Shown here piece after piece: positions 15,814 through 63,774 of a DNA stretch of 64,000 nucleotides (the stretch's first letter is position 1; every line of letters starts with the position of its first letter). Source of the DNA: Patescibacteria group bacterium (GTDB taxonomy: Bacteria > Patescibacteriota > Microgenomatia > UBA1400 > MFAQ01). The position numbers were made by a program, and so were the translations under genes. Below the pieces are notes generated by a model. The model was given only the letters and a program-made list of their open reading frames with translations. It made no database searches and had not been told where the DNA came from. The stretch covers positions 8,590 through 72,589 of the forward strand of contig CALRDV010000003.1 of NCBI GenBank assembly GCA_943355005.1, given 5' to 3'.

Positions 15814-16434
15814 TTATTTGGTGGTGCCGATGATGAGGCGAGCTTGGCTCGAGGACCCGGTAAGGACTCCGGCGTACGTGGCTTCGGGGAATGATTTAAT
15901 CAAGTCGGACATGACGATCTCTTTCTTGGATTCGATCTCTTTGGAAAGATAAACAGGTATTCCTTTGACTGTATCAGGGGAGTTTCCAAGTTTGTTTACT
16001 GTGTAGCCCATGGATTCCAGGGTTTTGCCGTATTTGGCTGCTAATCCTTTGGTGTCGGTAGAATTCAAAACATCAAAAGTGATTTCTGATTTTCTGAGAG
16101 GGACTGGTGTGGGGGTGTTTGAGACGGTTGGAGTGGCTGTCGGGGTAGGAGTGACTGCCATTTGTTGCTCGGCCGGCCGGCGGAAAAATATTACTCCTAG
16201 AACAATGGTGGAAATTATTACTAATACTCCTACTATTGAACCGAGGATGAAAAGAAACTTGTCTTTCTTTTCGGATGGTGGAATTTCCGGGACTATGGGA
16301 ACTACAGAATCTATTTTTAGTTCGGCATCTTTTTCGATGGAGGGGACAGTTGTCTCACTAGCGACTGCTACGGGGGTAACTTTCTCGGGTTCGGAAGAAA
16401 AACCTTCCGGTAGAGAGGAGTCTTTTTTCTTCAT
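15814..16434 (-). CDS. membrane-anchored LytR_C domain protein with a Pro/Thr-rich linker
   Basis: 206 aa with a TM segment and a 'TPTPTATPTVSNTPTPVP' linker. The C-terminus 'FDVLNSTDTKGLAAKYGKTLESMGYTV...' resembles LytR_C. Confidence 0.5.
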   Translation of the reverse strand: MKKKDSSLPEGFSSEPEKVTPVAVASETTVPSIEKDAELKIDSVVPIVPEIPPSEKKDKFLFILGSIVGVLVIISTIVLGVIFFRRPAEQQMAVTPTPTATPTVSNTPTPVPLRKSEITFDVLNSTDTKGLAAKYGKTLESMGYTVNKLGNSPDTVKGIPVYLSKEIESKKEIVMSDLIKSFPEATYAGVLTGSSSQARLIIGTTK

Positions 16435-29876: not shown

Positions 29877-29998
29877 AATTAGACAGGGTTCGAACATGCC
29901 GGAGCAGAACCCGTAACGGTTTTTGCGAGGCGGGGTGAGGCGAAGCTAATGCTGAGACCGAACCTCGAACCCCCAATCAATTCGGTATTAATCTATAT

Positions 29999-30024
29999 AG
30001 ATTCCCGCCTTCGCGGGAATGACA
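29999..30024. repeat. REP-like element, subtype 1 variant
   Basis: agattcccgccttcgcgggaatgaca. Confidence 0.45.
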
Positions 30025-35783: not shown

Positions 35784-37346
35784 GTGAAAATCGAAGAATT
35801 AGTACGAAGAGACGCGGAAAAAGTCACTCCTGAGAATTTGGAGGAGTATCGCCGCGCCTGGGCAAAGGTAATTGGCCGGATGCCGAAGAACTCAGAAATT
35901 TGGCCCTTTATTGACGATGATGAGATAAAAGAGCTTTACAAGACCCGCAGTGTACGGACTGAGTCCGGGGTAGCTCCGTTTGCGGTCATGATGAAACCTC
36001 ATTATTGTCCCGGCAACTGTGTTTACTGTCCACTGGAAGAAGGAATGCCGAAATCTTATTTATCGGATGAGCCGGCGGCTCAGAGAGCCAAGAAATTGAA
36101 GTTTGATCCGTATTTGCAAGTAGAGATGAGAATTAAACAGATGGAAGAGACTGGGCACATCACTGACAAAATAGATTTGATAGTGATTGGGGGAACTTTT
36201 TCTGCTTATCCGGATGATTACAAGCTGGAATTTTTTAAGGGTATGTTTGATGGGGTAAATGGATTTGTTTCCGATACTTTGGAAGAAGCCCAAAAATATA
36301 ATGAGACGGGGAAAAGAAGAATCGTGGGAATTTCGGTAGAAACAAGACCTGACTGGGTGACAGAACAGGAGATAATTTTATGGCGAAAAATGGGTGTGAC
36401 CAAGGTACAGCTCGGAGTCCAAGCATTCGATGAAGAAATTTTGAAGAAAATTAATAGGGGACATAGTCTGGATGAAGTGGCCGAAGCGACCAGGATGTGT
36501 AGAAATGCGGGGGTGAAGATTTGCTATCACTTCATGCCAAACTTGCCGGGGAGCACACCGGAAAAAGATATTGAGATGGCGAAAATAATGTTTAATGATC
36601 CTAGATTTGAGCCTGATTATCTCAAAGTTTATCCGGCGATGGTAATTCCGACGACTGAGCTGCATAAGATGTGGGAAAGAGGCGAGTATCAGAGCTATGC
36701 CGATGAGGATTTGAAAAGAGTATTGAAAGAAGTAAAAAGATTGACCCCGCGATGGTGCCGGATAGATAGATTGGTCCGTGATATCAGTAAACAGTGGGTG
36801 AGTTCGGGAACCCTGAGAACCAACTTAAGACAAATTCTACAGGCCGAATTAAAGAAAGAGGGTAAAAAATGTCTGTGTATCCGGTGCAGAGAAGTCCGAG
36901 CGGGTGTCTATGATGCTGAAGTAAAACTACTGATAGATGAGAGAGAAACTTTGGGGGGACAAGAGCTTTTCTTGTCTTTTGAAAGTGAAGACAATTTATT
37001 TTCGATGTTGCGACTGCGACTTCCGGAGAAAGATGAAAAGATGCTATTTAAGGAGCTTGAGGGGGCAGCGATAGTGCGGGAAGTACATACGTATGGTCAA
37101 GTAAAAGGAATTACTGCTATGGATTCCGGGTCGGAGCCCGGAATGACAGACCTTCAAGGAGACTCCTTGAAGGGGGAAGAAAGTCAACATAGGGGACTAG
37201 GGAAGAGACTTTTGGTAAAGGCTGAAGAGATCGCCAAAGACAGAGGCTATAAAAAAATGGCGGTAATATCGGCAATAGGCACGAGAGAGTACTACAAGAA
37301 GCTGGGATACGAGCTGGAGGGGGAGTATGTGGTGAAGATGTTGTAG
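35784..37346 (+). CDS. Elp3-family radical SAM plus GNAT protein (putative tRNA uridine-34 modification enzyme)
   Basis: 520 aa with the radical-SAM cysteine triad 'CPGNCVYCP' and a C-terminal GNAT 'RGLGKRLLVKAEEIAKDRGYKKMAVISAIGTREYYKKLGY'. Confidence 0.7.
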   Translation: MKIEELVRRDAEKVTPENLEEYRRAWAKVIGRMPKNSEIWPFIDDDEIKELYKTRSVRTESGVAPFAVMMKPHYCPGNCVYCPLEEGMPKSYLSDEPAAQRAKKLKFDPYLQVEMRIKQMEETGHITDKIDLIVIGGTFSAYPDDYKLEFFKGMFDGVNGFVSDTLEEAQKYNETGKRRIVGISVETRPDWVTEQEIILWRKMGVTKVQLGVQAFDEEILKKINRGHSLDEVAEATRMCRNAGVKICYHFMPNLPGSTPEKDIEMAKIMFNDPRFEPDYLKVYPAMVIPTTELHKMWERGEYQSYADEDLKRVLKEVKRLTPRWCRIDRLVRDISKQWVSSGTLRTNLRQILQAELKKEGKKCLCIRCREVRAGVYDAEVKLLIDERETLGGQELFLSFESEDNLFSMLRLRLPEKDEKMLFKELEGAAIVREVHTYGQVKGITAMDSGSEPGMTDLQGDSLKGEESQHRGLGKRLLVKAEEIAKDRGYKKMAVISAIGTREYYKKLGYELEGEYVVKML

Positions 37347-42337: not shown

Positions 42338-43228
42338 TTAGATTTTGTGGCCGGAGAGGAATTGTTTCCAGGTAGTTGGGTTCTTGCCGGGGATTTGAAC
42401 GGTGTCGATTATTAACTTATCGGAAACGAGAGAAGTTTTCAAAATTTTTATTTGTATAGCCCCGCCTTGGCGGGGGACAATTGTCGTCCAGGCGCCCGGT
42501 TCCGGATTGAGGGAGCGGATGAGAGCATGAACTTCTTTGGCATCAACTCCCTTAAGGGCGTTAAAAGTTTTCACGGAGGGGACCAGGGCAGAAGCGTGAG
42601 AAATTGTTTTGTGGCTTGGAGTAAAAGTGGCGAGGGATTCGTCTTGAGGCATAGAAGTGTAATTTTGAGCACAGATTTCGGGTAATTTATCTGTCAGAAG
42701 TTCTTCTGCAGCCTGAGTAAGTTTTGTGGTCAATTTTAGGACATCATCATTCATGTCGATAGTGACTTTTGCTTGAGAGATTATATTACCGTGGTCCAGT
42801 TTTTCATCCATTTCCATCAGTGTGACTCCGGTTTCTATGTCCATGTTTTTGATGGCTTCGGAGATACAAAGAGCGCCTCGATATTTGGGAAGTAAAGAAA
42901 AATGAATATTGAAAGTGCCTAGTGCGGGGGATTCGAGCCAAGTCTTGGGAACTATTTTGCCAAAAGAGACGAATAAGAAGATATCGGGTTTGAGGAGTCT
43001 GAGGTGAGCCAGATTGGCTTCATCCAGCTTATTGGGTTTGTAAATTGGTAAGTCGTAGTTACCGGCCATTTCAGAGACAGGGGAAGGAGTTAGGACTTGT
43101 TTGCGGCCTTGAGGTTTGTCCGGGGTGGTGACTACGCCAACCACATTTACCAATTTGGATTGTATGATTTTTTCCAGAATTTGGGCTGAGAAGTCGGGTG
43201 AGCCGAAGTAAATAAGATTTTTGAGCAT
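42338..43228 (-). CDS. fmt: methionyl-tRNA formyltransferase
   Basis: 296 aa with 'LIYFGSPDFSAQILEKII...VVGVVTTPDKPQGRK'. Confidence 0.8.
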   Translation of the reverse strand: MLKNLIYFGSPDFSAQILEKIIQSKLVNVVGVVTTPDKPQGRKQVLTPSPVSEMAGNYDLPIYKPNKLDEANLAHLRLLKPDIFLFVSFGKIVPKTWLESPALGTFNIHFSLLPKYRGALCISEAIKNMDIETGVTLMEMDEKLDHGNIISQAKVTIDMNDDVLKLTTKLTQAAEELLTDKLPEICAQNYTSMPQDESLATFTPSHKTISHASALVPSVKTFNALKGVDAKEVHALIRSLNPEPGAWTTIVPRQGGAIQIKILKTSLVSDKLIIDTVQIPGKNPTTWKQFLSGHKI

Positions 43229-43248
43229 GGATATATTATATTTCGGAT

Positions 43249-43275
43249 GGATTCCCGATCAGGTCGGGAATGACA
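43249..43275. repeat. REP/MITE-like palindromic element, subtype 1 (GGATTCCCGA-TCAGG-TCGGGAATGACA)
   Basis: 8-bp inverted repeat ATTCCCGA/TCGGGAAT in the fmt-def intergenic region. Other copies: 29999..30024 (variant), 45129..45156 (inside a CDS), 47780..47806, 50523..50548 and 63619..63675 (expanded loop). Confidence 0.6.
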
Positions 43276-43286
43276 TTTGTGTGTGT

Positions 43287-43823
43287 TTATATTTGGTCTA
43301 TGGGGGTGAGGCCGTCTTTGGTGTCTTTGAGAATTTGGCCTCCCTGTCTGAGAATGTGGTCGGTGAACAAGATTCCGTCCAAATGATCGTTCTCGTGCTG
43401 GACATAGGCAGACTCGGCGTCTTCGAATTTGCGATGACGTTTGACTAGTTCGCCGTTTTCAGGGGTGAGGTAATCCATCTCAATAGAGTAGGGTCTATCG
43501 ACGACGCCCCAGATACCAGGGAGAGATAAACAGCCTTCAAGCCAGCGGTCCTTTTTCTTGGTGTGAACTGTCGAGAACATCGCCTCGGATGCCTTTGTGA
43601 TGACTGGGTTGATAAAGATTTCCGGCTTACCATTAAGTAAGACGATAAAGAGACGGCGGTCTATGCCTACCTGGGTGGCTGCTAGGCCTACACCTTCAGG
43701 GTCTCTGGAAGCTTTGAGAGTCGAAATCATTTCACTAATCTGCTTTTCCAGCTTTTTGTCGAGCTTGAGCACAGGCTTAGCCACAAGGCGGAGGAATGGG
43801 TCGTGCGTAACGAGGATTTTCAT
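43287..43823 (-). CDS. def: peptide deformylase
   Basis: 178 aa with 'GVGLAATQVG', 'EGCLSLPG' and 'HENDHLDG'. Confidence 0.85.
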   Translation of the reverse strand: MKILVTHDPFLRLVAKPVLKLDKKLEKQISEMISTLKASRDPEGVGLAATQVGIDRRLFIVLLNGKPEIFINPVITKASEAMFSTVHTKKKDRWLEGCLSLPGIWGVVDRPYSIEMDYLTPENGELVKRHRKFEDAESAYVQHENDHLDGILFTDHILRQGGQILKDTKDGLTPIDQI

Positions 43824-44318: not shown

Positions 44319-46346
44319 TTATTTGGTGATCTGATTTAGGCGGTCTTTGGCGGCTTCGTAGTCTGGCTTAAGTTCGATGGCTTTTTGGAAGGCAAGCTTG
44401 GCCGCTTCCAGTGTAGATTTTGCGTCGGTGCTGGCTCCGAGGACTTTGGACTCCGACATGGATTGGGCTAAGCTAGCGTAAAGAATACCAATGTTGTAAT
44501 AATTGGTCGCTTCGGTGGGAGAGAGCTCGGTAATTTTTAGTAGCGTGTTAATTGCGTCCAAATTATATTTTGGATCTAAAGTTGCCAGAGATAGTTCGGT
44601 ACGGGCTTTGGTCTTTAGTAGATTTAAATTGTATTTATTCATCTCTACCGCTTTCGCAATATTTGTAACTGAATCACTCATGTATTGATTAAGATAGTCT
44701 TGGCCTCTTTTCTTTAAATCGGCGGAAGTGGAGGCAGTAAAGTCTTTCATCTGAGGTGCAATAATTTGGACGGCAACTAGCGCTTGGACATTTCCGAGCT
44801 GGGCATAATAAATCGGCTCGCGTGGATTTAAATCGATTGCCTTGAGATCTTCCGAGAGATTGTTCCTGCCGGCAGTGTAAGCCAGATCGGCGACCCACAG
44901 CCGTCGTACTCCAAGAAGTAGCCAAATGGCTAAGATAATGATAAGAGTTTTGCCAACCGTCTCGTTTAGATTATTTTTTTGAGAAATAATTTTGGCTTGT
45001 TCGGTCGCGGAAATATAAATGGCGGGGAAGAGGAAAAAGAAAATGGCAACGTTTACGACAGAGAAGCCGAAGTAGTTGGTGATGAGAATACTGATGAAGC
45101 CGAGGAGGAGAGGGAGGGATAGGGAACTGGATTCCGGATCAGGTCCGGAATGACGAGATATAAAAATACAAATAATTGAAACAATGAGGAAAAGATAGGC
45201 TGCGAGACCGACGAAGCCGGTATTGGCCAAGAAATTTAAATATTCGTTGTGAGCTTTGTTGTAAAGAAAATCAGACTCGGAAGTGAGATTGTGAGCTGCG
45301 GGCCTTACCCAGTAATAAGTGTAGCCAAAAGTTTCGACTCCGGTACCAAAGAGGGGATACTTCTTACCTAGTTCGATGGCGCCTGTCCAGACGACGCGAC
45401 GGATAGTCATGGAGTCTGAGCCACCAACGCGGGTTTTGTTTTCTTCGTTGATGATGGATTCGGTATTGGAATAGAGAGGATTAATCTTGTTTAAAGAGGA
45501 AAGAGTTCGAGAAACCGAACTGCCTTTAAAAAATATTACTAAAGCAAGAAGTATTCCTAAGCCATAAAGAATTTTGGGTTGCTTTTTTTGAAGAGAAATT
45601 ATGATGACAAAAGCGGTTAGGATTACGGCTGTGGCGCCAATGCCGGATTGAGAGCGGGTAAAGAGAATAGAAATCAGAAAGAGTCCGGACAAAAAGACGT
45701 GGGCAAAGCGGGAATTAATATTTTTGGTGTTTACCGCGGTAAAAAGGGAAATGGGAAGTAGAGCAATTAAATATGCAGAGAGCCAGTTTGGCTGACCCAA
45801 AGTGGAGAAGACGCGATTCTGGACATCTTGCACCCAGACATTTTTATCAATACCCATTTTTTCCAAGACAGCGTAACCGGCTGTAATCGCCGCGGTAGTT
45901 AGGATGGCGTAGAAAAGATTTTTTATGGCTTTAGCTTGTCCCAAAAAATGGGTGACGAGAGCGTAAAAAAGAATGACGTAGCAAATGGTGGACATCAAGC
46001 CACCATGGAAGCGGGAGTAATAGCCCCAAAGACTTGTGTGCCGGTCGATGGAAATATAGGTGGAAATGATTTGTGATGTGAGGAAAACTAAAATGGGGAG
46101 GTCCAGAGGTGTTTTGGCAATCTCAAATTTCTTGATTTCGAAGGACCGCCAAAGCCAACCGGCAGAAATAATAATCGTCATGGCATAGACGAACATCATC
46201 TTGTTGAATTCGAAAACTTCGGAAGTGAAAGGCCAGAGTAAAAGAGGGGTGATGAAGAAAAGGGTGTAGAAACAATAGTGAATAAAAGTGGCCGGTTTTT
46301 GGAAAATTATTTTTGGAGGAAATATCTTTTTCGACGCAGATGACAT
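44319..46346 (-). CDS. O-antigen ligase-like (Wzy_C) polytopic membrane protein with C-terminal TPR repeats
   Basis: 675 aa, many TMs, with 'HNEYLNFLANTGFVGL' (Wzy_C-like) and a TPR-like C-terminus. It contains an in-frame REP-like element at 45129..45156. Confidence 0.6.
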   Translation of the reverse strand: MSSASKKIFPPKIIFQKPATFIHYCFYTLFFITPLLLWPFTSEVFEFNKMMFVYAMTIIISAGWLWRSFEIKKFEIAKTPLDLPILVFLTSQIISTYISIDRHTSLWGYYSRFHGGLMSTICYVILFYALVTHFLGQAKAIKNLFYAILTTAAITAGYAVLEKMGIDKNVWVQDVQNRVFSTLGQPNWLSAYLIALLPISLFTAVNTKNINSRFAHVFLSGLFLISILFTRSQSGIGATAVILTAFVIIISLQKKQPKILYGLGILLALVIFFKGSSVSRTLSSLNKINPLYSNTESIINEENKTRVGGSDSMTIRRVVWTGAIELGKKYPLFGTGVETFGYTYYWVRPAAHNLTSESDFLYNKAHNEYLNFLANTGFVGLAAYLFLIVSIICIFISRHSGPDPESSSLSLPLLLGFISILITNYFGFSVVNVAIFFFLFPAIYISATEQAKIISQKNNLNETVGKTLIIILAIWLLLGVRRLWVADLAYTAGRNNLSEDLKAIDLNPREPIYYAQLGNVQALVAVQIIAPQMKDFTASTSADLKKRGQDYLNQYMSDSVTNIAKAVEMNKYNLNLLKTKARTELSLATLDPKYNLDAINTLLKITELSPTEATNYYNIGILYASLAQSMSESKVLGASTDAKSTLEAAKLAFQKAIELKPDYEAAKDRLNQITK

Positions 46347-46481
46347 GGGTATAGTTTAGCAGAGAAAAGCAAAAGTCCTCCGAAAATATCGGAGGACTTT
46401 AATGGTTGAGATCGCCCAGAGAGTAGCCAAAGCCGTGTCGGAGGTGCACCCCCAACCAACTCCACTGTTTCTCTGGGCTTG

Positions 46482-46555
46482 TGCCCTTGGCGCGACTCGA
46501 ACACGCGACCCTTTGCTCCGCAAGCAAATGCTCTAATCCACTGAGCTACAAGGGC
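46482..46555 (-). tRNA. tRNA-Arg (anticodon GCG as read), CCA not encoded
   Basis: Minus strand reads GCCCTTG-TA-GCTC-AGTGGATTA-GAGC-A-TTTGC-TTGCGGA-GCAAA-GGGTC-GCGTG-TTCGAGT-CGCGC-CAAGGGC-A. There is an upstream TTGACT-N17-TATATT promoter. Confidence 0.7.
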
Positions 46556-46692
46556 TGGGTCAAACTTAAATTTTCATACTACGTGCGCGGATTTCCTATA
46601 ATATATCACGAAGGTCTCAATAAGTCAAGTATTAAGCCTGGTTTTATCAATAAAAAGTCCCGTCTGAATCAGACGGGACTTTACTTCAATGC

Positions 46693-47514: not shown

Positions 47515-47779
47515 TTTGGGGTCCTTTCTGAACCACTTATAGAAAAACTTGAGTCTCGTCCGAATGGAAGAGTACGCTTGGTCCCGCTTATGGCGGGACG
47601 CTTGGAAAAAACAATTTCAGAGAGCGAGATCTACTTACTTTTTACTCTCGTAAGTTGGAGCATTATAGCACCACTGAGGCTATTTGTCAAGTTATAGGCC
47701 TTTAAGTAGTCTCCTTGAAGGCTGATATTGAGGCTGGGTGGTGTGAGTCCCGCCTAGGCGGGAGACGTTGCTGTTGCCT

Positions 47780-47806
47780 GGATTCCGGATCAAGTCCGGA
47801 ATGACA
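47780..47806. repeat. REP-like element, subtype 1
   Basis: ggattccggatcaagtccggaatgaca. Confidence 0.6.
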
Positions 47807-47814
47807 AATATCCT

Positions 47815-47852
47815 GGATTGCCACGGTTCGGAGTACCGAAACTCGCAATGAC
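47815..47852. repeat. REP-like element, subtype 2 (GGATTGCCAC...TCGCAATGAC)
   Basis: ggattgccacggttcggagtaccgaaactcgcaatgac, a nested hairpin. It sits 8 nt after the subtype-1 copy. Other copies: 52156..52194 and 63688..63726 (variant inner stem). Confidence 0.55.
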
Positions 47853-47921
47853 GGTGTTAGTCTCGCTTTAGTGGCTATACTTTGATATTATTTAGGGGCA
47901 TTATGACTACTTTAAATTATC

Positions 47922-49312: not shown

Positions 49313-50110
49313 CTATGGTGAAGTAATGATGGCGAGGTTGTTGGGGTTGGCGTTTAGAGAATCGTAAAGAGAAATTTCGGCTTTTTGCAAAGGCTCTTGA
49401 CTGATGGTGAGAAGTTTGGTAATTTTGCCAATAATTAAATTGCCTGGGAAAAGTTCACCGGGTTCCGTAAAAATAAAATCTCCGAGAATGATAGGGTACT
49501 GGCTGGGGACTTCACCGATTTGAGAAGTGTTCCCTGCATAATGATAAAAACCTTTTTGTCCGGAAGCGGTACGGATGGGGAAGGAGGGAGACTTTTCACT
49601 TTCGAGTGGGGTAATCGTGATGGCGGTGCCTTTGACTTCCAGAACTGTGCCAAGAAGTACATTGCCGGAAACAAGAGGCTGTCCGGGTAGTACTTTATCC
49701 AGCGGGGCGGTGGAAGAAACGATAAATTTTCCCGATGAGCCGGATAGACGGACAGGAATAATGGCCTTAAAAGAATTTTTTAAATTGTCGGTGATTTTTT
49801 TGTCTATCAAGGTTTGTTTTAGGAACTCATTTTCCGAAAGCAAGGACGCAATGTGAGTTTTTTGTTCGCGATTTTGTTTCTCCAAACCGGAGATATTTTT
49901 GAGATAGGTAAATTTATTTTCGACGGTTAGTTTTAGCTTGGCAACAGGTAGTGTGGCCGGAGCAAAAATGATATTAAATATATTGTCTACACTTTTGCCC
50001 ACCTTGAGTTTTCCTGTGGTAGCAAGTAGTATTGACAGCAGAAATGGAAGTAATAGTAGATTTATTTTTATAGAAGTATTCATGATAGATAAGCAAACCA
50101 AGAATATCAT
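49313..50110 (-). CDS. mreC: rod shape-determining protein MreC (inverted relative to mreB, mreD and mrdA)
   Basis: 265 aa with an N-terminal TM, a coiled coil and a C-terminal 'PIILGDFIFTEPGELFPGNLIIGKITKL' matching the MreC beta-domain pattern. The minus-strand reading was confirmed by hand. Confidence 0.6.
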   Translation of the reverse strand: MIFLVCLSIMNTSIKINLLLLPFLLSILLATTGKLKVGKSVDNIFNIIFAPATLPVAKLKLTVENKFTYLKNISGLEKQNREQKTHIASLLSENEFLKQTLIDKKITDNLKNSFKAIIPVRLSGSSGKFIVSSTAPLDKVLPGQPLVSGNVLLGTVLEVKGTAITITPLESEKSPSFPIRTASGQKGFYHYAGNTSQIGEVPSQYPIILGDFIFTEPGELFPGNLIIGKITKLLTISQEPLQKAEISLYDSLNANPNNLAIITSP

Positions 50111-50504
50111 AAAAGCTGCCGTGGCGGTGATATTTTGTGTGCTATTTGGTGAAGGTGTTTTTGGCTTGGGAATTTTTTGGCCTTTTCTTTTGATACTGTT
50201 GGATTGGAGTTGGATTTATTGGTTTTCTTTTGTGATTGGTCTTCTGATAGCTTCGATTTACCGGATACCGGTCGGTCCGCCGGCTTTGTTTCTGGTAATT
50301 GTGACCGGGGGATTATCTTTTGTTTTTAATTCCAGAAAAGAAACCGGCTGGGTGATGCTGGTGATTTCCTTACTTGCTAGTTTTGTTTTTGATAAAGTGT
50401 TTGGAGTTACTTGGAGTATGTGGGATTTTTTCTCGATTGTGGTGGCGTGGATGATTGCTTCCAGGTGGTTTGAAAGGTCGGAAACTATTAAACTGAATTA
50501 TTAA
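50082..50504 (+). CDS. mreD: MreD-like membrane protein
   Basis: The track ORF 49938..50504 was trimmed to the internal ATG at 50082 ('MIDKQTKNII...'), leaving 140 aa with about 5 TMs. Confidence 0.45.
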   Translation: MIDKQTKNIIKAAVAVIFCVLFGEGVFGLGIFWPFLLILLDWSWIYWFSFVIGLLIASIYRIPVGPPALFLVIVTGGLSFVFNSRKETGWVMLVISLLASFVFDKVFGVTWSMWDFFSIVVAWMIASRWFERSETIKLNY

Positions 50505-50522
50505 TTAAGAGTTATTTTTATA

Positions 50523-50548
50523 GATTCCCGATCAGGTCGGGAATGACA
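50523..50548. repeat. REP-like element, subtype 1
   Basis: gattcccgatcaggtcgggaatgaca, between mreD and mrdA. Confidence 0.6.
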
Positions 50549-50552
50549 CTAA

Positions 50553-52088
50553 ATGGGGAAAAAGGAAATATATACCTGGACGAAGATGATTTTGGTGCTA
50601 GTGATGGCCATGGTTTTTTCGCGCGTCTTTTTCTTGACTACTGTCATGGGTGATCATTTTGGGGATTTGGCTCACGGTAATATGATTCGGAAAGAAAAAT
50701 TGGATCCTATCCGTGGCGTGATTACTGACAGATTTGGAAAACCGCTGGCGATGAATATTGATTATTTGGGTAGGACGATTAGGTATTATCCCGGAGGAGA
50801 AACGATTTCGGCTATTGTGGGGTATTTGGGAAAGCCAAGTCAAGGTGACTTGAAAGATTGTGCTCAATGTAATCCGGTGATGACACTTGGAAAAGCAGGA
50901 CTGGAGAAAAGTTATCAGAATGATTTGGTGGGATTTCCGGGCGAAGCCGTAATTCAAGAAACTGCCGACGGGAAGACTAGAAAAGTTATTACTCAGATTG
51001 AGTCTGCTCCCGGGAAAAATCTTAAAACAAATATTGATTTGGAGTTACAGAAGCAGGTTTTTTTGGCCCTGAAAAATAAATATAAAGAAGAGGGGAAAAG
51101 TGGGGCGATGATAGTGGCAAAAGTGAATGGGGAAGTGCTGGCTTTGGCTAGTGTACCGTCCTTTGACCCAAATTTGTTTATTGCGAATGGTAAGCGAAGT
51201 GATTTTGGTGGAGATTATAAGGATATAGAAAGTTTGCTGATAGACGAAAAAGGAAAACCTTTGTTTAATAGGGCAATTTCCGGAGATTTTGCTCCTGGGT
51301 CTGTCTACAAACTTGTGCCAGCGATGGGAGCACTCGAAGAAGGGAAGATAAATCGAGAAACAGAAATTTTGGATACGGGAGAAATAAAAATAGGGTTGTA
51401 TCGCTTTGGGAATTGGTATTTGGATCAGTTTGGAAAGACCGAGGGTGAGGTGAATGTGATAAAAGCGATTTCCAGAAGTAATGATATCTTCTTTTATAAA
51501 ATGGGGGAGGCGCTAGGCGCCGATTCGCTGATTTCATGGACTAAGAGATTTGGTTTGGGAGAAAAAACCGGCATTGATTTGCCTGGTGAGTCTGGAGGTT
51601 TTGTGCCAACGCCTTACTGGAGGGAAAAGACTCTGGGAGAAAAATGGTTTTTGGGGAATACTTATCATATGGCAATTGGTCAGGGAGATCTTATGACGAC
51701 GCCAATACAGATAAATAGAATGACGGCCCAAGCCGTGAGCGGCATGAGCTGTGACCCTATGATTGTCGGAAGTGTGGCGTGTGGAGACCAGAAATTTAAT
51801 CCAAAGAATATTGCGACAATATTGGAAGGGATGAAGGGAGCTTGTAGCCCAGGGGGGACTGCTCCTGCTTTGTTTGAATATGCAGGGAGAATTTACTGCA
51901 AGACTGGTACGGCTCAAGTGGGTTCAAAAGAGACTCTTTCAAACGCTTGGATTAGTGTGGTAATTCCTAAAGGGCAAGATGTTAGAGAGTGGATTGTGAT
52001 TACGGTCCTAGTGGAAGAGGGAGGTCAGGGGAGTGCGGTGGCTGCGCCTGTAGCGAAGGAGATTATGCCGTATTTGATGAAAATTTAG
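50553..52088 (+). CDS. mrdA: penicillin-binding protein 2 (class B transpeptidase)
   Basis: 511 aa with 'APGSVYK' (SxxK), 'SRSND' (SxN) and 'KTGTA' (KTG). Confidence 0.85.
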   Translation: MGKKEIYTWTKMILVLVMAMVFSRVFFLTTVMGDHFGDLAHGNMIRKEKLDPIRGVITDRFGKPLAMNIDYLGRTIRYYPGGETISAIVGYLGKPSQGDLKDCAQCNPVMTLGKAGLEKSYQNDLVGFPGEAVIQETADGKTRKVITQIESAPGKNLKTNIDLELQKQVFLALKNKYKEEGKSGAMIVAKVNGEVLALASVPSFDPNLFIANGKRSDFGGDYKDIESLLIDEKGKPLFNRAISGDFAPGSVYKLVPAMGALEEGKINRETEILDTGEIKIGLYRFGNWYLDQFGKTEGEVNVIKAISRSNDIFFYKMGEALGADSLISWTKRFGLGEKTGIDLPGESGGFVPTPYWREKTLGEKWFLGNTYHMAIGQGDLMTTPIQINRMTAQAVSGMSCDPMIVGSVACGDQKFNPKNIATILEGMKGACSPGGTAPALFEYAGRIYCKTGTAQVGSKETLSNAWISVVIPKGQDVREWIVITVLVEEGGQGSAVAAPVAKEIMPYLMKI

Positions 52089-52155
52089 GTTCGTCATCAC
52101 GAGGAGCGAAAGCGACGTGGTGATCCAGGCTAATGAAAATTCAAAAAGTGGTCCT

Positions 52156-52194
52156 GGATTGCCACAGCTCGGAATACCGAGATTCGCAATGACA
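52156..52194. repeat. REP-like element, subtype 2
   Basis: ggattgccacagctcggaataccgagattcgcaatgaca, just upstream of promoter P1. Confidence 0.55.
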
Positions 52195-52203
52195 AAGAGG
52201 GTC

Positions 52204-52232
52204 TTGACAAATCTCGTGTTATGGGGTATTAT
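52204..52232 (+). promoter_or_regulatory. sigma70-like promoter P1 (TTGACA-N17-TATTAT)
   Basis: The -35 TTGACA is at 52204-52209, the 17-nt spacer ends in TGGGG, and the -10 TATTAT is at 52227-52232. Confidence 0.6.
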
Positions 52233-52239
52233 ATACGTA

Positions 52240-52780
52240 TTCTAGAAATAGAAGTTTACTTTTAAATCTAATGGTTGGCCGCTATGAAATGGAAGTTAAG
52301 GCTTTTGTTTCGTAACGGCCAAAGCCGATACCTGTAATCTAGCAAAGGACCGCCTAGGTTAAACCAGCGCCTTATGATTACAGGGTTCTCGTATAAGTCC
52401 TTCCCCCCTGCAGCGTAGCCTCCGCCGATGTAGGAGCTGATTCCGCATCATTGGTTGACGCATTTCAGGGTATGGAAGCACAATAGGGCGTGATGGCCCT
52501 GTACGAGCGATACGAACCGCCCTTAGCAGGGCATGGCGCCGAGCTTAATGGTTCGGACGTATTGTGAGAGTGTCTCGTCGGAGGTTCACCTGCTATGGTG
52601 ATACCACGCTATCCGGCTGCCAGAGAGCTCTCAGACCAAGATCCTGCCAAGAAGAGGCGCATAAAAACTTCTTGGCGGGATCGTCCGCAAAATGATGTGG
52701 GCCGGCGGACCGCGCCGGCCCCCATCAATCTTTCTTGAAAATAGTAGCCGTCATAATTGTGACGGCTATTTGCTTTTTTG
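52240..52780 (+). ncRNA. candidate structured ncRNA 1 (approx. 540 nt, GC-rich, class unknown)
   Basis: Bounded by P1 and an intrinsic terminator (hairpin 52746..52768 plus T6). It has no long ORF and is GC-rich relative to its surroundings. Confidence 0.5.
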
Positions 52781-52808
52781 AGGCTTGAGGCTGATAGACC
52801 CATAACAC

Positions 52809-52837
52809 TTGACAAAAGGGGAAAGTGGTGGTAGAAT
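52809..52837 (+). promoter_or_regulatory. sigma70-like promoter P2 (TTGACA-N17-TAGAAT)
   Basis: -35 at 52809-52814 and -10 at 52832-52837. Confidence 0.55.
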
Positions 52838-52843
52838 AACTGT

Positions 52844-53400
52844 ATTCTCGAAAGAGATTGTTCCTTAATTCATAAATGAATTTGGACTGCGAAGTTGGTC
52901 ACCAAGCTGGAATTCTAAATATTTGGATTTCGAGCTTGGTGGCCGACAACGCAACGGCGCCATGACGTCCCTTGATGTGAGTACTCCATTTTTTTATCAT
53001 TCAGGAGACTCTATTCTAAACGTATGTATCGTTGTGCACAAAGTTGCGGGGATTCACTGCCTGCTTTGTGTAGTCGCGTTGCTTTCCCTAAGTGCCCCTC
53101 GCAAAGGCAACCTTTCTCAAGACGAGAAGGTGGAAACCGGAGGCAGTCCGGCAGAGAGATTGGGAGATGGTTGCTCAACCGTCTTCACTCTCTGATGGTG
53201 ACTTCCTGAATGAGCCCCTCTTCACATTGGACCCCGGGGTCTATTTGTGTCGAAGCGCGGAAGTCATCCAGTCCTCAGGAGCTGAAAGCAGTGATATGGC
53301 CTTTTTCGGTCTATGCACAAATGCTAGCTCCTGGGGACAAATTCATTTATCTTATTTCATCTCTGAGACCGGCCATGCGCCGGTCTCATTTGCGTTTTTG
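52844..53400 (+). ncRNA. candidate structured ncRNA 2 (approx. 555 nt, GC-rich, class unknown; paralogous 5' region to ncRNA 1)
   Basis: Bounded by P2 and the terminator gagaccggc-catgc-gccggtctc plus T-run (53365..53399). Its 5' motif 'GTATTCTCGAAAGAGA' matches 'GTATTCTAGAAATAGA' of ncRNA 1. It contains only short mutually overlapping ORFs. Confidence 0.5.
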
Positions 53401-63607: not shown

Positions 63608-63618
63608 AAAGTAAGACT

Positions 63619-63726
63619 GGATTCCGGGTCAAGCTCGCCTCGCTGAAGCCGAGTCGAAGCGGGCCCGGAATGACAGGTGGACAGGTTGATTGCCACGGCC
63701 GACCTAAAGTCGAGCCTCGCAATGAC
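63619..63726. repeat. compound REP-like locus: subtype 1 with a 30-nt loop insertion followed by subtype 2
   Basis: ggattccgggtcaag[ctcgcctcgctgaagccgagtcgaagcgg]gcccggaatgaca, followed by gattgccacggccgacctaaagtcgagcctcgcaatgac. Confidence 0.5.
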
Positions 63727-63774
63727 CAGGTATTAAAAAACTCCCCATCGCTTGACAGGGAGTTTTTGAGTGCG

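Follow-up and report, generated by a model that had tools for sequence, protein, structure and literature searches.

A hairpin repeat of probable NTS/SRM type translated in frame within a Wzy_C-like membrane protein gene of a Patescibacteria genome

Hairpin element and host gene

The DNA analysed here, henceforth called the window, is a stretch of 64,000 nt from a genome of the Patescibacteria, or Candidate Phyla Radiation (CPR; assembly GCA_943355005.1, contig CALRDV010000003.1, positions 8,590 to 72,589 of the forward strand). At 45127-45155 it carries a 29-nt hairpin element that resembles the Neisseria Transformation Sequence (NTS) and the Ssn-related motifs (SRM), and that lies inside a gene encoding a Wzy_C / WaaL-fold membrane protein of 675 aa with a C-terminal TPR domain (44319-46346, minus strand). 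The element is oriented along the minus strand, i.e., the sense strand of the gene, where it reads 5'-CGTCATTCCGGACCTGATCCGGAATCCAG-3' with the layout 5'-CGTC-ATTCCGGA-CCTGA-TCCGGAAT-CCAG-3'. The letters of the plus strand are CTGGATTCCGGATCAGGTCCGGAATGACG for 45127-45155 and ggattccggatcaggtccggaatgacg for 45129-45155. The core of the hairpin (45131-45151) is a perfect 8-bp stem (45131-45138, ATTCCGGA, paired with 45144-45151, TCCGGAAT) enclosing a 5-nt loop (TCAGG on the plus strand). As single-stranded DNA (ssDNA), the element folds with -7.6 kcal/mol (z = -2.9).

The original prediction had placed a palindrome inside this coding sequence at 45129-45156 and had described it as translated in frame without interruption of the open reading frame (ORF). 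The location was correct and the end was one base too long: the codons derived from the element occupy 45129-45155 on the minus strand and encode R398-S406 (RHSGPDPES), with neither a stop codon nor a frameshift. The ORF at 44319-46346 is the sole long ORF of the region and reads ...FISRHSGPDPESSSLSLPLLLGF... across the element, of which four of the six frames are free of stop codons. The hairpin is confirmed as a real feature. A chance palindrome, or an artefact of assembly or sequencing, has nothing in its favour beyond the shortness of the element and is hardly credible. Shuffle statistics exclude chance: with up to two mismatches, the hairpin pattern was found four times in the window versus 0.05 expected (four or more in 0 of 100 shuffles), and the 27-mer, with up to three mismatches, three times versus 0.00 expected. 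A database protein of the same genome (P0001) is identical across the insert region, the ORF is intact, and every family-invariant column of an alignment of 41 homologues is kept in the host protein. An element is also present at the same codon position in the independent assemblies of three relatives (L001, L007, and L008, see below), and the hairpin thus is not an assembly artefact.

The host protein was matched in Pfam to Wzy_C (E = 1.1e-19) as well as to TPR, and its nearest homologues belong to Candidatus Collierbacteria (Microgenomates, Patescibacteria/CPR), with 74% identity for the best match in another genome. Its AlphaFold2 model has a mean predicted local distance difference test score (pLDDT) of 78, and the top solved structure matching it was the O-antigen ligase WaaL (7TPG, E = 7.6e-6). 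Around the insert, the model places helices at residues 368-396 and 404-425 and a coil at 397-403, with pLDDT below 50 at 400-406, and the insert position is the only non-helical, low-confidence stretch between the two helices. As modelled, the insert is a disordered inter-helix linker between two transmembrane helices, and the nine inserted residues most likely add nothing to the function of the enzyme. P0001 is annotated with 620 aa and starts 55 codons downstream of the first ATG, leaving out 46182-46346; the 675-aa reading of the gene is probably the right one, since orthologues align from residue 1-22 onward.

Assignment to NTS/SRM-type hairpins

The NTS of Neisseria (CGTCATTCCCGCGMAVGCGGGAATCYRG) embeds dRS3 (ATTCCC-N8-GGGAAT) and belongs to the SRM (PMC11893778). 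These repeats were tied to a nuclease in 2025, when NTS hairpins were described to flank the gene of the 94-aa single-domain GIY-YIG nuclease SsnA and to be cut by it (Nat Commun 2025, PMC11893778). SsnA acts on ssDNA only and on one strand only; its binding depends critically on the C that directly follows the palindrome and its cleavage on the three bases upstream of the palindrome, and in N. meningitidis 2% of NTS lie in genes (PMC11893778). Patescibacteria are not mentioned in that study (PMC11893778).

The element in the window shares with NTS, dRS3, and SRM a length of about 28-29 nt and a perfect 8-bp stem that starts with ATTCC and ends with GGAAT, here around a 5-nt loop. It further shares the oriented flanks, i.e., CGTC upstream and CCAG downstream (pattern (H)GTC and C followed by Y-R-G), and the occurrence in multiple copies, with 10 members in 64 kb. 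The positions critical for SsnA (the C after the palindrome and the three nucleotides upstream) are conserved in the copies. Copies were also compared with the published SRM pattern (HGTCWYN(0-2)YYVSBRHN(0-5)WNVSBRGN(0-2)RNCYNB), which was matched exactly by an intergenic sibling on the minus strand at 29997-30024 (TGTCATTCCCGCGAAGGCGGGAATCTAT), versus 0.06 matches expected. The dRS3 pattern (ATTCCC-N8-GGGAAT) is included in this sibling, which departs from the Neisseria NTS at two positions. The element at 45127-45155 differs from NTS in being intragenic and translated and in having a CPR host, in which cleavage by a nuclease would be presumed by analogy.

A second likeness, seen in related DNA, is the layout of SRM, GIY-YIG gene, and inverted SRM, which was found in three loci (L012, L081, and L160). 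In a Collierbacteria relative (L012, 15995-16430), a 96-aa GIY-YIG gene (16106-16396, Pfam E = 1.2e-16) follows two CGTCATTGCGAG...GGCAATCTCAC elements and precedes one inverted copy. This order is insertion-sequence-like and agrees with the NTS-ssnA-NTS layout of Neisseria. In two metagenome contigs (L081 and L160), GIY-YIG genes are followed after 12-20 nt by the exact subtype-1 hairpin CTGGATTCCCGATCAGGTCGGGAATGAC and have an SRM upstream as well. Together with a further locus (L168), the hairpin-flanked GIY-YIG ORFs encode 87-96 aa and match Pfam at E of about 1e-16, and small GIY-YIG homologues are also named in the annotation of Patescibacteria genomes. A search of NCBIfam gave no specific family for these ORFs, and a PDB sequence search for a solved Ssn structure gave spurious WD40 matches only.

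The element had been called REP-like, i.e., likened to the repetitive extragenic palindromic (REP) sequences, and this description holds as far as a dispersed short hairpin is concerned; the class itself does not hold. If it were a classical REP, it would have been moved by a REP-associated tyrosine transposase (RAYT) or another transposase of the IS200-IS605 type acting on ssDNA hairpins, and would have landed in the gene. REP sequences begin with the head GT[AG]G. Short, oriented, dispersed hairpins with a conserved 5' head, often paired, presumed to act as ssDNA and flanking one small enzyme gene are common to the present family and to REP sequences, which are arranged as bacterial interspersed mosaic elements (BIME); the strand-orientation bias described below is as expected for ssDNA transposition, and metagenome copies stand in convergent, BIME-like pairs. 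The head of the element, however, is (T/C)GTCA (GTCA versus GTAG), its flanks match NTS/SRM almost base for base, and REP sequences are extragenic by definition. GIY-YIG genes were the sole enzyme genes seen between the hairpins, with no gene of a Y1 transposase, at which no search was aimed. An origin as a classical REP is accordingly considered quite improbable, and by its flanks, stem, and linked gene, the sequence at 45127-45155 is better classed as an NTS/SRM-type hairpin. In the literature searched, no paper joins REP-type repeats with CPR/Patescibacteria.

The same linker in orthologous genes

The linker was compared in the DNA of 80 orthologous loci, with 55-74% identity for the orthologues in this comparison. 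Between the two conserved hydrophobic helices, the linker ranges from about 4 to about 40 residues among homologues, and the segment is an indel within it. Many Collierbacteria orthologues have a short linker free of any palindrome (L002, L023, L005, L006, L010, L011, L013, L014, L016-18, and L021). A nearly identical peptide (RHSGLDPES) is encoded by L008 only, and its DNA carries the hairpin too (CGTCATTCCGGGCTTGACCCGGAATCCAG); the stem difference between the window gene and L008 is compensatory, with A:T changed to G:C on both sides. The same peptide was thus not encountered apart from the element. The indel in a length-variable linker, the predicted coil with low pLDDT, and the retained invariant residues support the tolerated in-frame loop insertion that the original prediction had proposed.

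Different elements were found in this linker in at least nine Collierbacteria orthologues. An element of the type CGTCATTCC... occupies exactly the same codon and frame in the window gene, L008, L001, and L007, and in the latter two it reads CGTCATTCCCGACCTGATC(G/A)GGAATCTATA. In L004, the linker holds a convergent pair (GTCATTGCGAGG...GGCAATC and an inverted CTGGATCGCC...GCGATGACGG), and other GTCATTGCG... types are present in L009, L012, L015, and L019.

Trees were calculated by bootstrapped neighbour-joining with the loop excluded. A filled orthologue (L015) is sister to an empty one (L016) at 99% bootstrap, and filled L004 is nested in a 100% clade whose remaining members are without an element. 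The gene tree groups the window gene with L001 (91%) and L007 with L008 (87%). Loop haplotypes, in conflict with this, group the window gene with L008 and L001 with L007, and both of these groupings received 0% in the gene tree. The element was also considered as a recombination breakpoint, and this was rejected: both halves of the gene agree in grouping the window gene with L001 (50 of 60 and 47 of 60 bootstraps) and never with L008, so that only the loop is in conflict. The 29-nt element is identical at 25-26 of 29 positions (86-90%) between genomes that have only 39-46% identity at synonymous sites.

These data bear on the possibility of a single ancient insertion in the Collierbacteria ancestor, inherited vertically and now a relic under neutral drift, with occasional deletion. 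The identical codon and frame in the window gene, L008, L001, and L007 is what such a relic would show, and decay predicts a stem mismatch as in L001, a degenerate look as in L019, and loops of the L003 type, which are equal in length and have no palindrome. The excess of identity in the element over synonymous sites, the stems that are still perfect and carry a compensatory change, the loop haplotypes at odds with the gene tree, the other subtypes at the same site elsewhere, and the filled and empty sisters L015 and L016 oppose it, and a single ancient insertion is considered improbable. The element is not a decaying relic and is kept far better than neutral sites. Instead of one old neutral insertion, the subtypes, the filled and empty sisters, the tree conflict, and the excess of identity point to several events, which may amount to at least about five separate ones at this linker, or to an exchange of the hairpin for other copies.

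A second in-frame copy in an Elp3-like gene

A second copy of the family is read in frame in the same window. The host is an Elp3-like gene of 520 aa with radical SAM and GNAT domains (35784-37346, plus strand), and the copy lies on the minus strand at 37120-37148 (plus-strand letters TGGATTCCGGGTCGGAGCCCGGAATGACA), where it is translated as (A)MDSGSEPGMT. It is part of a 33-nt insertion (37116-37148) that corresponds to the element plus its termini, encodes 11 residues (AMDSGSEPGMT), and is lacking in orthologues that are 76-86% identical. In relatives, the same GNAT loop is occupied by other SRM types, with two elements head to head in L001 and one each in L012 and L015. Both in-frame copies of the window share the same absolute orientation, with host genes on opposite strands.

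Directly after this copy, a second perfect palindrome was observed at 37151-37173 (CCTTCAAGGAG-a-CTCCTTGAAGG), which is read as LQGDSLKG. The peptide LQG(D/L/Q)(S/A)L(K/Q) is encoded by several Elp3-like orthologues, and a variant in L024 is fully compensated (CTGCAAGGCC-a-GGCCTTGCAG). This palindrome may represent another hairpin family in coding sequence.

Distribution and orientation of copies in the window

A search by shared termini identified at least 10 family members in the 64 kb (at about 30.0, 37.1, 43.25, 45.13, 47.78, 47.82, 50.52, 52.16, 63.62, and 63.69 kb), eight of them intergenic and two inside long ORFs; four of the 10 are close copies. Counted copies were limited to those with G+C-rich stems, and a generic census with GTCATT...AAT[CG] was rejected as too noisy (40 matches versus 26 in shuffled DNA); specific patterns gave about zero matches in shuffled DNA. 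GTCATT and AATC are kept in all 10 copies, and the copies fold as ssDNA with -7.6 to -8.9 kcal/mol (z = -2.6 to -4.2). When the entire window was compared with Rfam at gathering thresholds, four tRNAs were the only matches, and none lay at an element.

The intergenic copies, all on the minus strand, include siblings of the same short type. Besides the one at 29997-30024, these were found by pattern search at 47778-47806 (upstream of mreB, where it is the first member of a tandem pair) and at 50521-50548 (between ORFs 49938-50504 and 50553-52088); another lies at 43248-43275, between an fmt-like ORF (42338-43228) and a def-like ORF (43287-43823), and has a compensated stem (CCCGA/TCGGG versus CCGGA/TCCGG). 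The remaining ones were recognised by shared termini and comprise a longer subtype as the second member of the tandem pair (47813-47853, GTCATTGCGAG...GGCAATCC), a subtype just downstream of ORF 50553-52088 (52154-52194, GTCATTGCGA...GGCAATCC), a long-stem copy (63617-63675, GTCATTCCGGGCCC...GACCCGGAATCCAG), and a subtype of the kind GTCATTGCGAGG...GGCAATC (63685-63727). The elements span 29997-63727, and none lies in the first approximately 30 kb.

All 10 copies show GGATT...AATGAC on the plus strand, with adjoining genes on both strands (two-sided probability of uniform orientation about 0.002 under a 50:50 null). Every 4-kb block of the window has a positive GC skew. As the leading strand is usually G-rich, the constant skew places the window on one replichore, with the putatively cleavable GTCATT strand always being the C-rich strand. 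In the loci of relatives, nearly all copies with G+C-rich stems are oriented as the sense strand of the Wzy-like gene. The orientation of copies thus tracks the chromosome strand and not gene direction, and the bias fits biology acting on one DNA strand, such as avoidance of self-cleavage at the replication fork or a preferred direction of insertion.

Copies in public metagenomes

Public metagenomes were scanned for GTCATTCCSGACYTGATCSGGAATC, which yielded at least 120 contigs (L081-L200), and 83 copies in 80 loci were examined. These contigs, at least 120 in number, share the identical 25-nt hairpin core, come from many, very different habitats, and range in G+C content from 33% to 62%. This conservation across unrelated hosts suggests either horizontal spread or a tight constraint by a nuclease. 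Only three of the 83 copies were clearly in long ORFs, each read as 9-10 residues: two in large multi-pass membrane proteins (EIPDQVRNDR and RFRIRSGMT) and one in a MiaB-like radical-SAM enzyme (RFPIKSGMT; contigs L100, L137, and L118). This rate is near the 2% of NTS in genes of N. meningitidis and well below the two of 10 in the window. Intragenic copies, which the original prediction had considered uncommon, are thus uncommon in general; in Collierbacteria, however, they recur at the same loops.

Among the matches listed, most copies sit in short open stretches or intergenic regions, and conservation around the core is confined to about -2 to +4. In the 123 of these copies that have enough flank, T or C is found at -1 in 95%, and C-A-G follows downstream in 69/77/58%. 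Within the same set, none of the boundary offsets showed an enriched k-mer duplication (114 copies), and an inverted partner within 120 nt occurred on the AATC side for 40 of 114 copies (35%), versus six on the other side and seven in controls. Inverted pairing on the AATC side is the geometry of the repeats around the nuclease gene.

The distribution of copies also bears on whether the hairpin is kept for a benefit to the gene, for instance by forming a structure in the mRNA by which translation is slowed between the transmembrane helices, or by serving as a regulatory site. Perfect stems with compensatory changes in several orthologues, a predicted mRNA hairpin of about -10 kcal/mol, and a position always at the helix-loop boundary would agree with such a role. 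Against this, many well-conserved orthologues have no hairpin there, the same sequence stands intergenically beside genes that run either way as well as in unrelated contigs (at least 120), and copies are oriented by the chromosome strand instead of by the gene. A benefit to the gene is regarded as very improbable.

Proposed origin and turnover

Taken together, we consider it likely that the element is an NTS/SRM-type hairpin tolerated in frame in a permissive linker, which would serve as a target of an Ssn-type nuclease and undergo strand-specific turnover. The family would comprise dispersed, oriented repeats of the form 5'-(T/C)GTC-ATT[stem-loop-stem]AAT-C(C/T)A(G/T)-3'. One copy would have entered, or been copied into, the DNA for the short unstructured inter-helix linker of the WaaL/Wzy_C-like protein. 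Its survival in the gene may be due to a linker that accepts extra residues, to the open frames of the element, and to a net length change that keeps the frame, with the consequence that it is translated as RHSGPDPES. In the protein, the element would be passenger DNA filtered by selection, which would leave copies in permissive loops where the frame is open and the length changes by a multiple of three; such a filter would account for the same permissive loops (the Wzy_C-like linker and the GNAT loop of the Elp3-like protein) being refilled in related genomes.

The strand 5'-GTCATT...AATC-3' would fold as a hairpin when single-stranded, and this hairpin could be bound and cut by an Ssn-type, single-domain GIY-YIG nuclease of approximately 90 aa that is encoded elsewhere in the genome. 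As the putative recognition site of such a nuclease, the element is a narrowly favoured candidate. Spread and turnover may proceed by a strand-specific ssDNA process, by short-patch conversion between copies, or by both, and either would explain the uniform orientation relative to the replication strand as well as the swapping of cores at one site. That copies arrive or are replaced in this way is suggested more weakly.

Several points weigh against this interpretation. The strict SRM pattern is missed by the 45127-45155 copy by one position, owing to the inner stem and loop (CCGGA-CCTGA-TCCGG here versus CCCGCG-MAV-GCGGG in NTS), and at one mismatch the pattern is unspecific, with 0-8 (about four) matches per shuffled window. 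A tblastn search found no GIY-YIG gene in the 64-kb window, so that the nuclease partner of this organism would be one deduced from relatives, and the GIY-YIG ORFs of the related contigs were assigned to Pfam GIY-YIG only, a level above the Ssn subfamily (cd10448). At the linker, the window gene is 18 nt longer than the empty loop of L023, and length differences to empty loops do not equal the length of the element; neither a target-site duplication nor a clean empty-site junction was definable there. The trees are neighbour-joining trees of one gene.

A stronger form of the proposal, in which SRM hairpins are repeatedly re-inserted or exchanged at the same coding loops by an Ssn-dependent, strand-specific ssDNA mechanism, beyond mere tolerance, is rather unlikely. 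If it were true, certain protein linkers would be landing pads whose hairpin core is renewed more quickly than the gene around it, with the repeats supplying variation in loop length and sequence to envelope and tRNA-modification proteins.

Relation to other intragenic repeats

[quoted passage not shown] The present family differs from MITEs in that no duplication signal was seen in 114 copies among the matches listed, and no direct repeat is visible flanking 45127-45155. It shares with enterobacterial repetitive intergenic consensus (ERIC) sequences and other MITEs that small non-autonomous repeats occasionally lie inside ORFs without disrupting them, and intragenic ERIC and other bacterial MITEs are described to create in-frame fusions (Delihas 2007, via PMC10969869). 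The palindromic elements of Rickettsia (RPE, Ogata et al. 2000), a textbook example of selfish DNA within genes, are described as being about 100-150 bp long with a conserved peptide of 30-50 aa (PMC10969869). As in RPE, a palindromic selfish repeat lies in frame in unrelated housekeeping genes and is translated at positions compatible with the fold; unlike RPE, the element is only 29 nt (nine residues) long and the same loop is filled repeatedly by different subtypes.

Two known phenomena, SRM/NTS repeats and RPE-type in-frame palindromes, are thus joined here, and neither is reported for this lineage in the literature searched. The assignment would extend the NTS/SRM system, including its gene-flanking layout, to the Patescibacteria as a distant lineage with small genomes, and would imply that such repeats are able to live inside essential coding sequence, in parallel to the Rickettsia palindromic elements. 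Refilled loops, turnover in conflict with the tree, and strict orientation offer testable handles on how the repeats move. For annotation, peptides such as RHS(G/R)PD(P/R)ES, VIA(S/R)E..KQS, and ...GMTD in uncultured bacteria would have to be read as translated repeats and not as conserved motifs.

Other hairpins in the window

Further G+C-rich hairpins were observed near copies of the family. The 407 nt upstream of mreB (47515-47921) contain, besides the two tandem SRM copies, the hairpins GGTCCCGCTTATGGCGGGAC near 47579 and GAGTCCCGCCTAGGCGGGAGAC near 47747, and a permissive Rfam scan of this region gave nothing beyond noise. The approximately 830 nt at 52089-52922 have no ORF of 60 aa or more and hold one SRM (52154-52194) and several long inverted repeats (52640-52727 and 52888-52953); a permissive Rfam scan of 52089-52922 returned sub-threshold noise only. 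A tRNA gene (46482-46555) is flanked by similar hairpins at 46372-46400 and 46654-46682 (AAAGTCCTCCGA...TCGGAGGACTTT and AAAGTCCCGTCTGA.TCAGACGGGACTTT), which resemble terminators or members of a further small repeat family.

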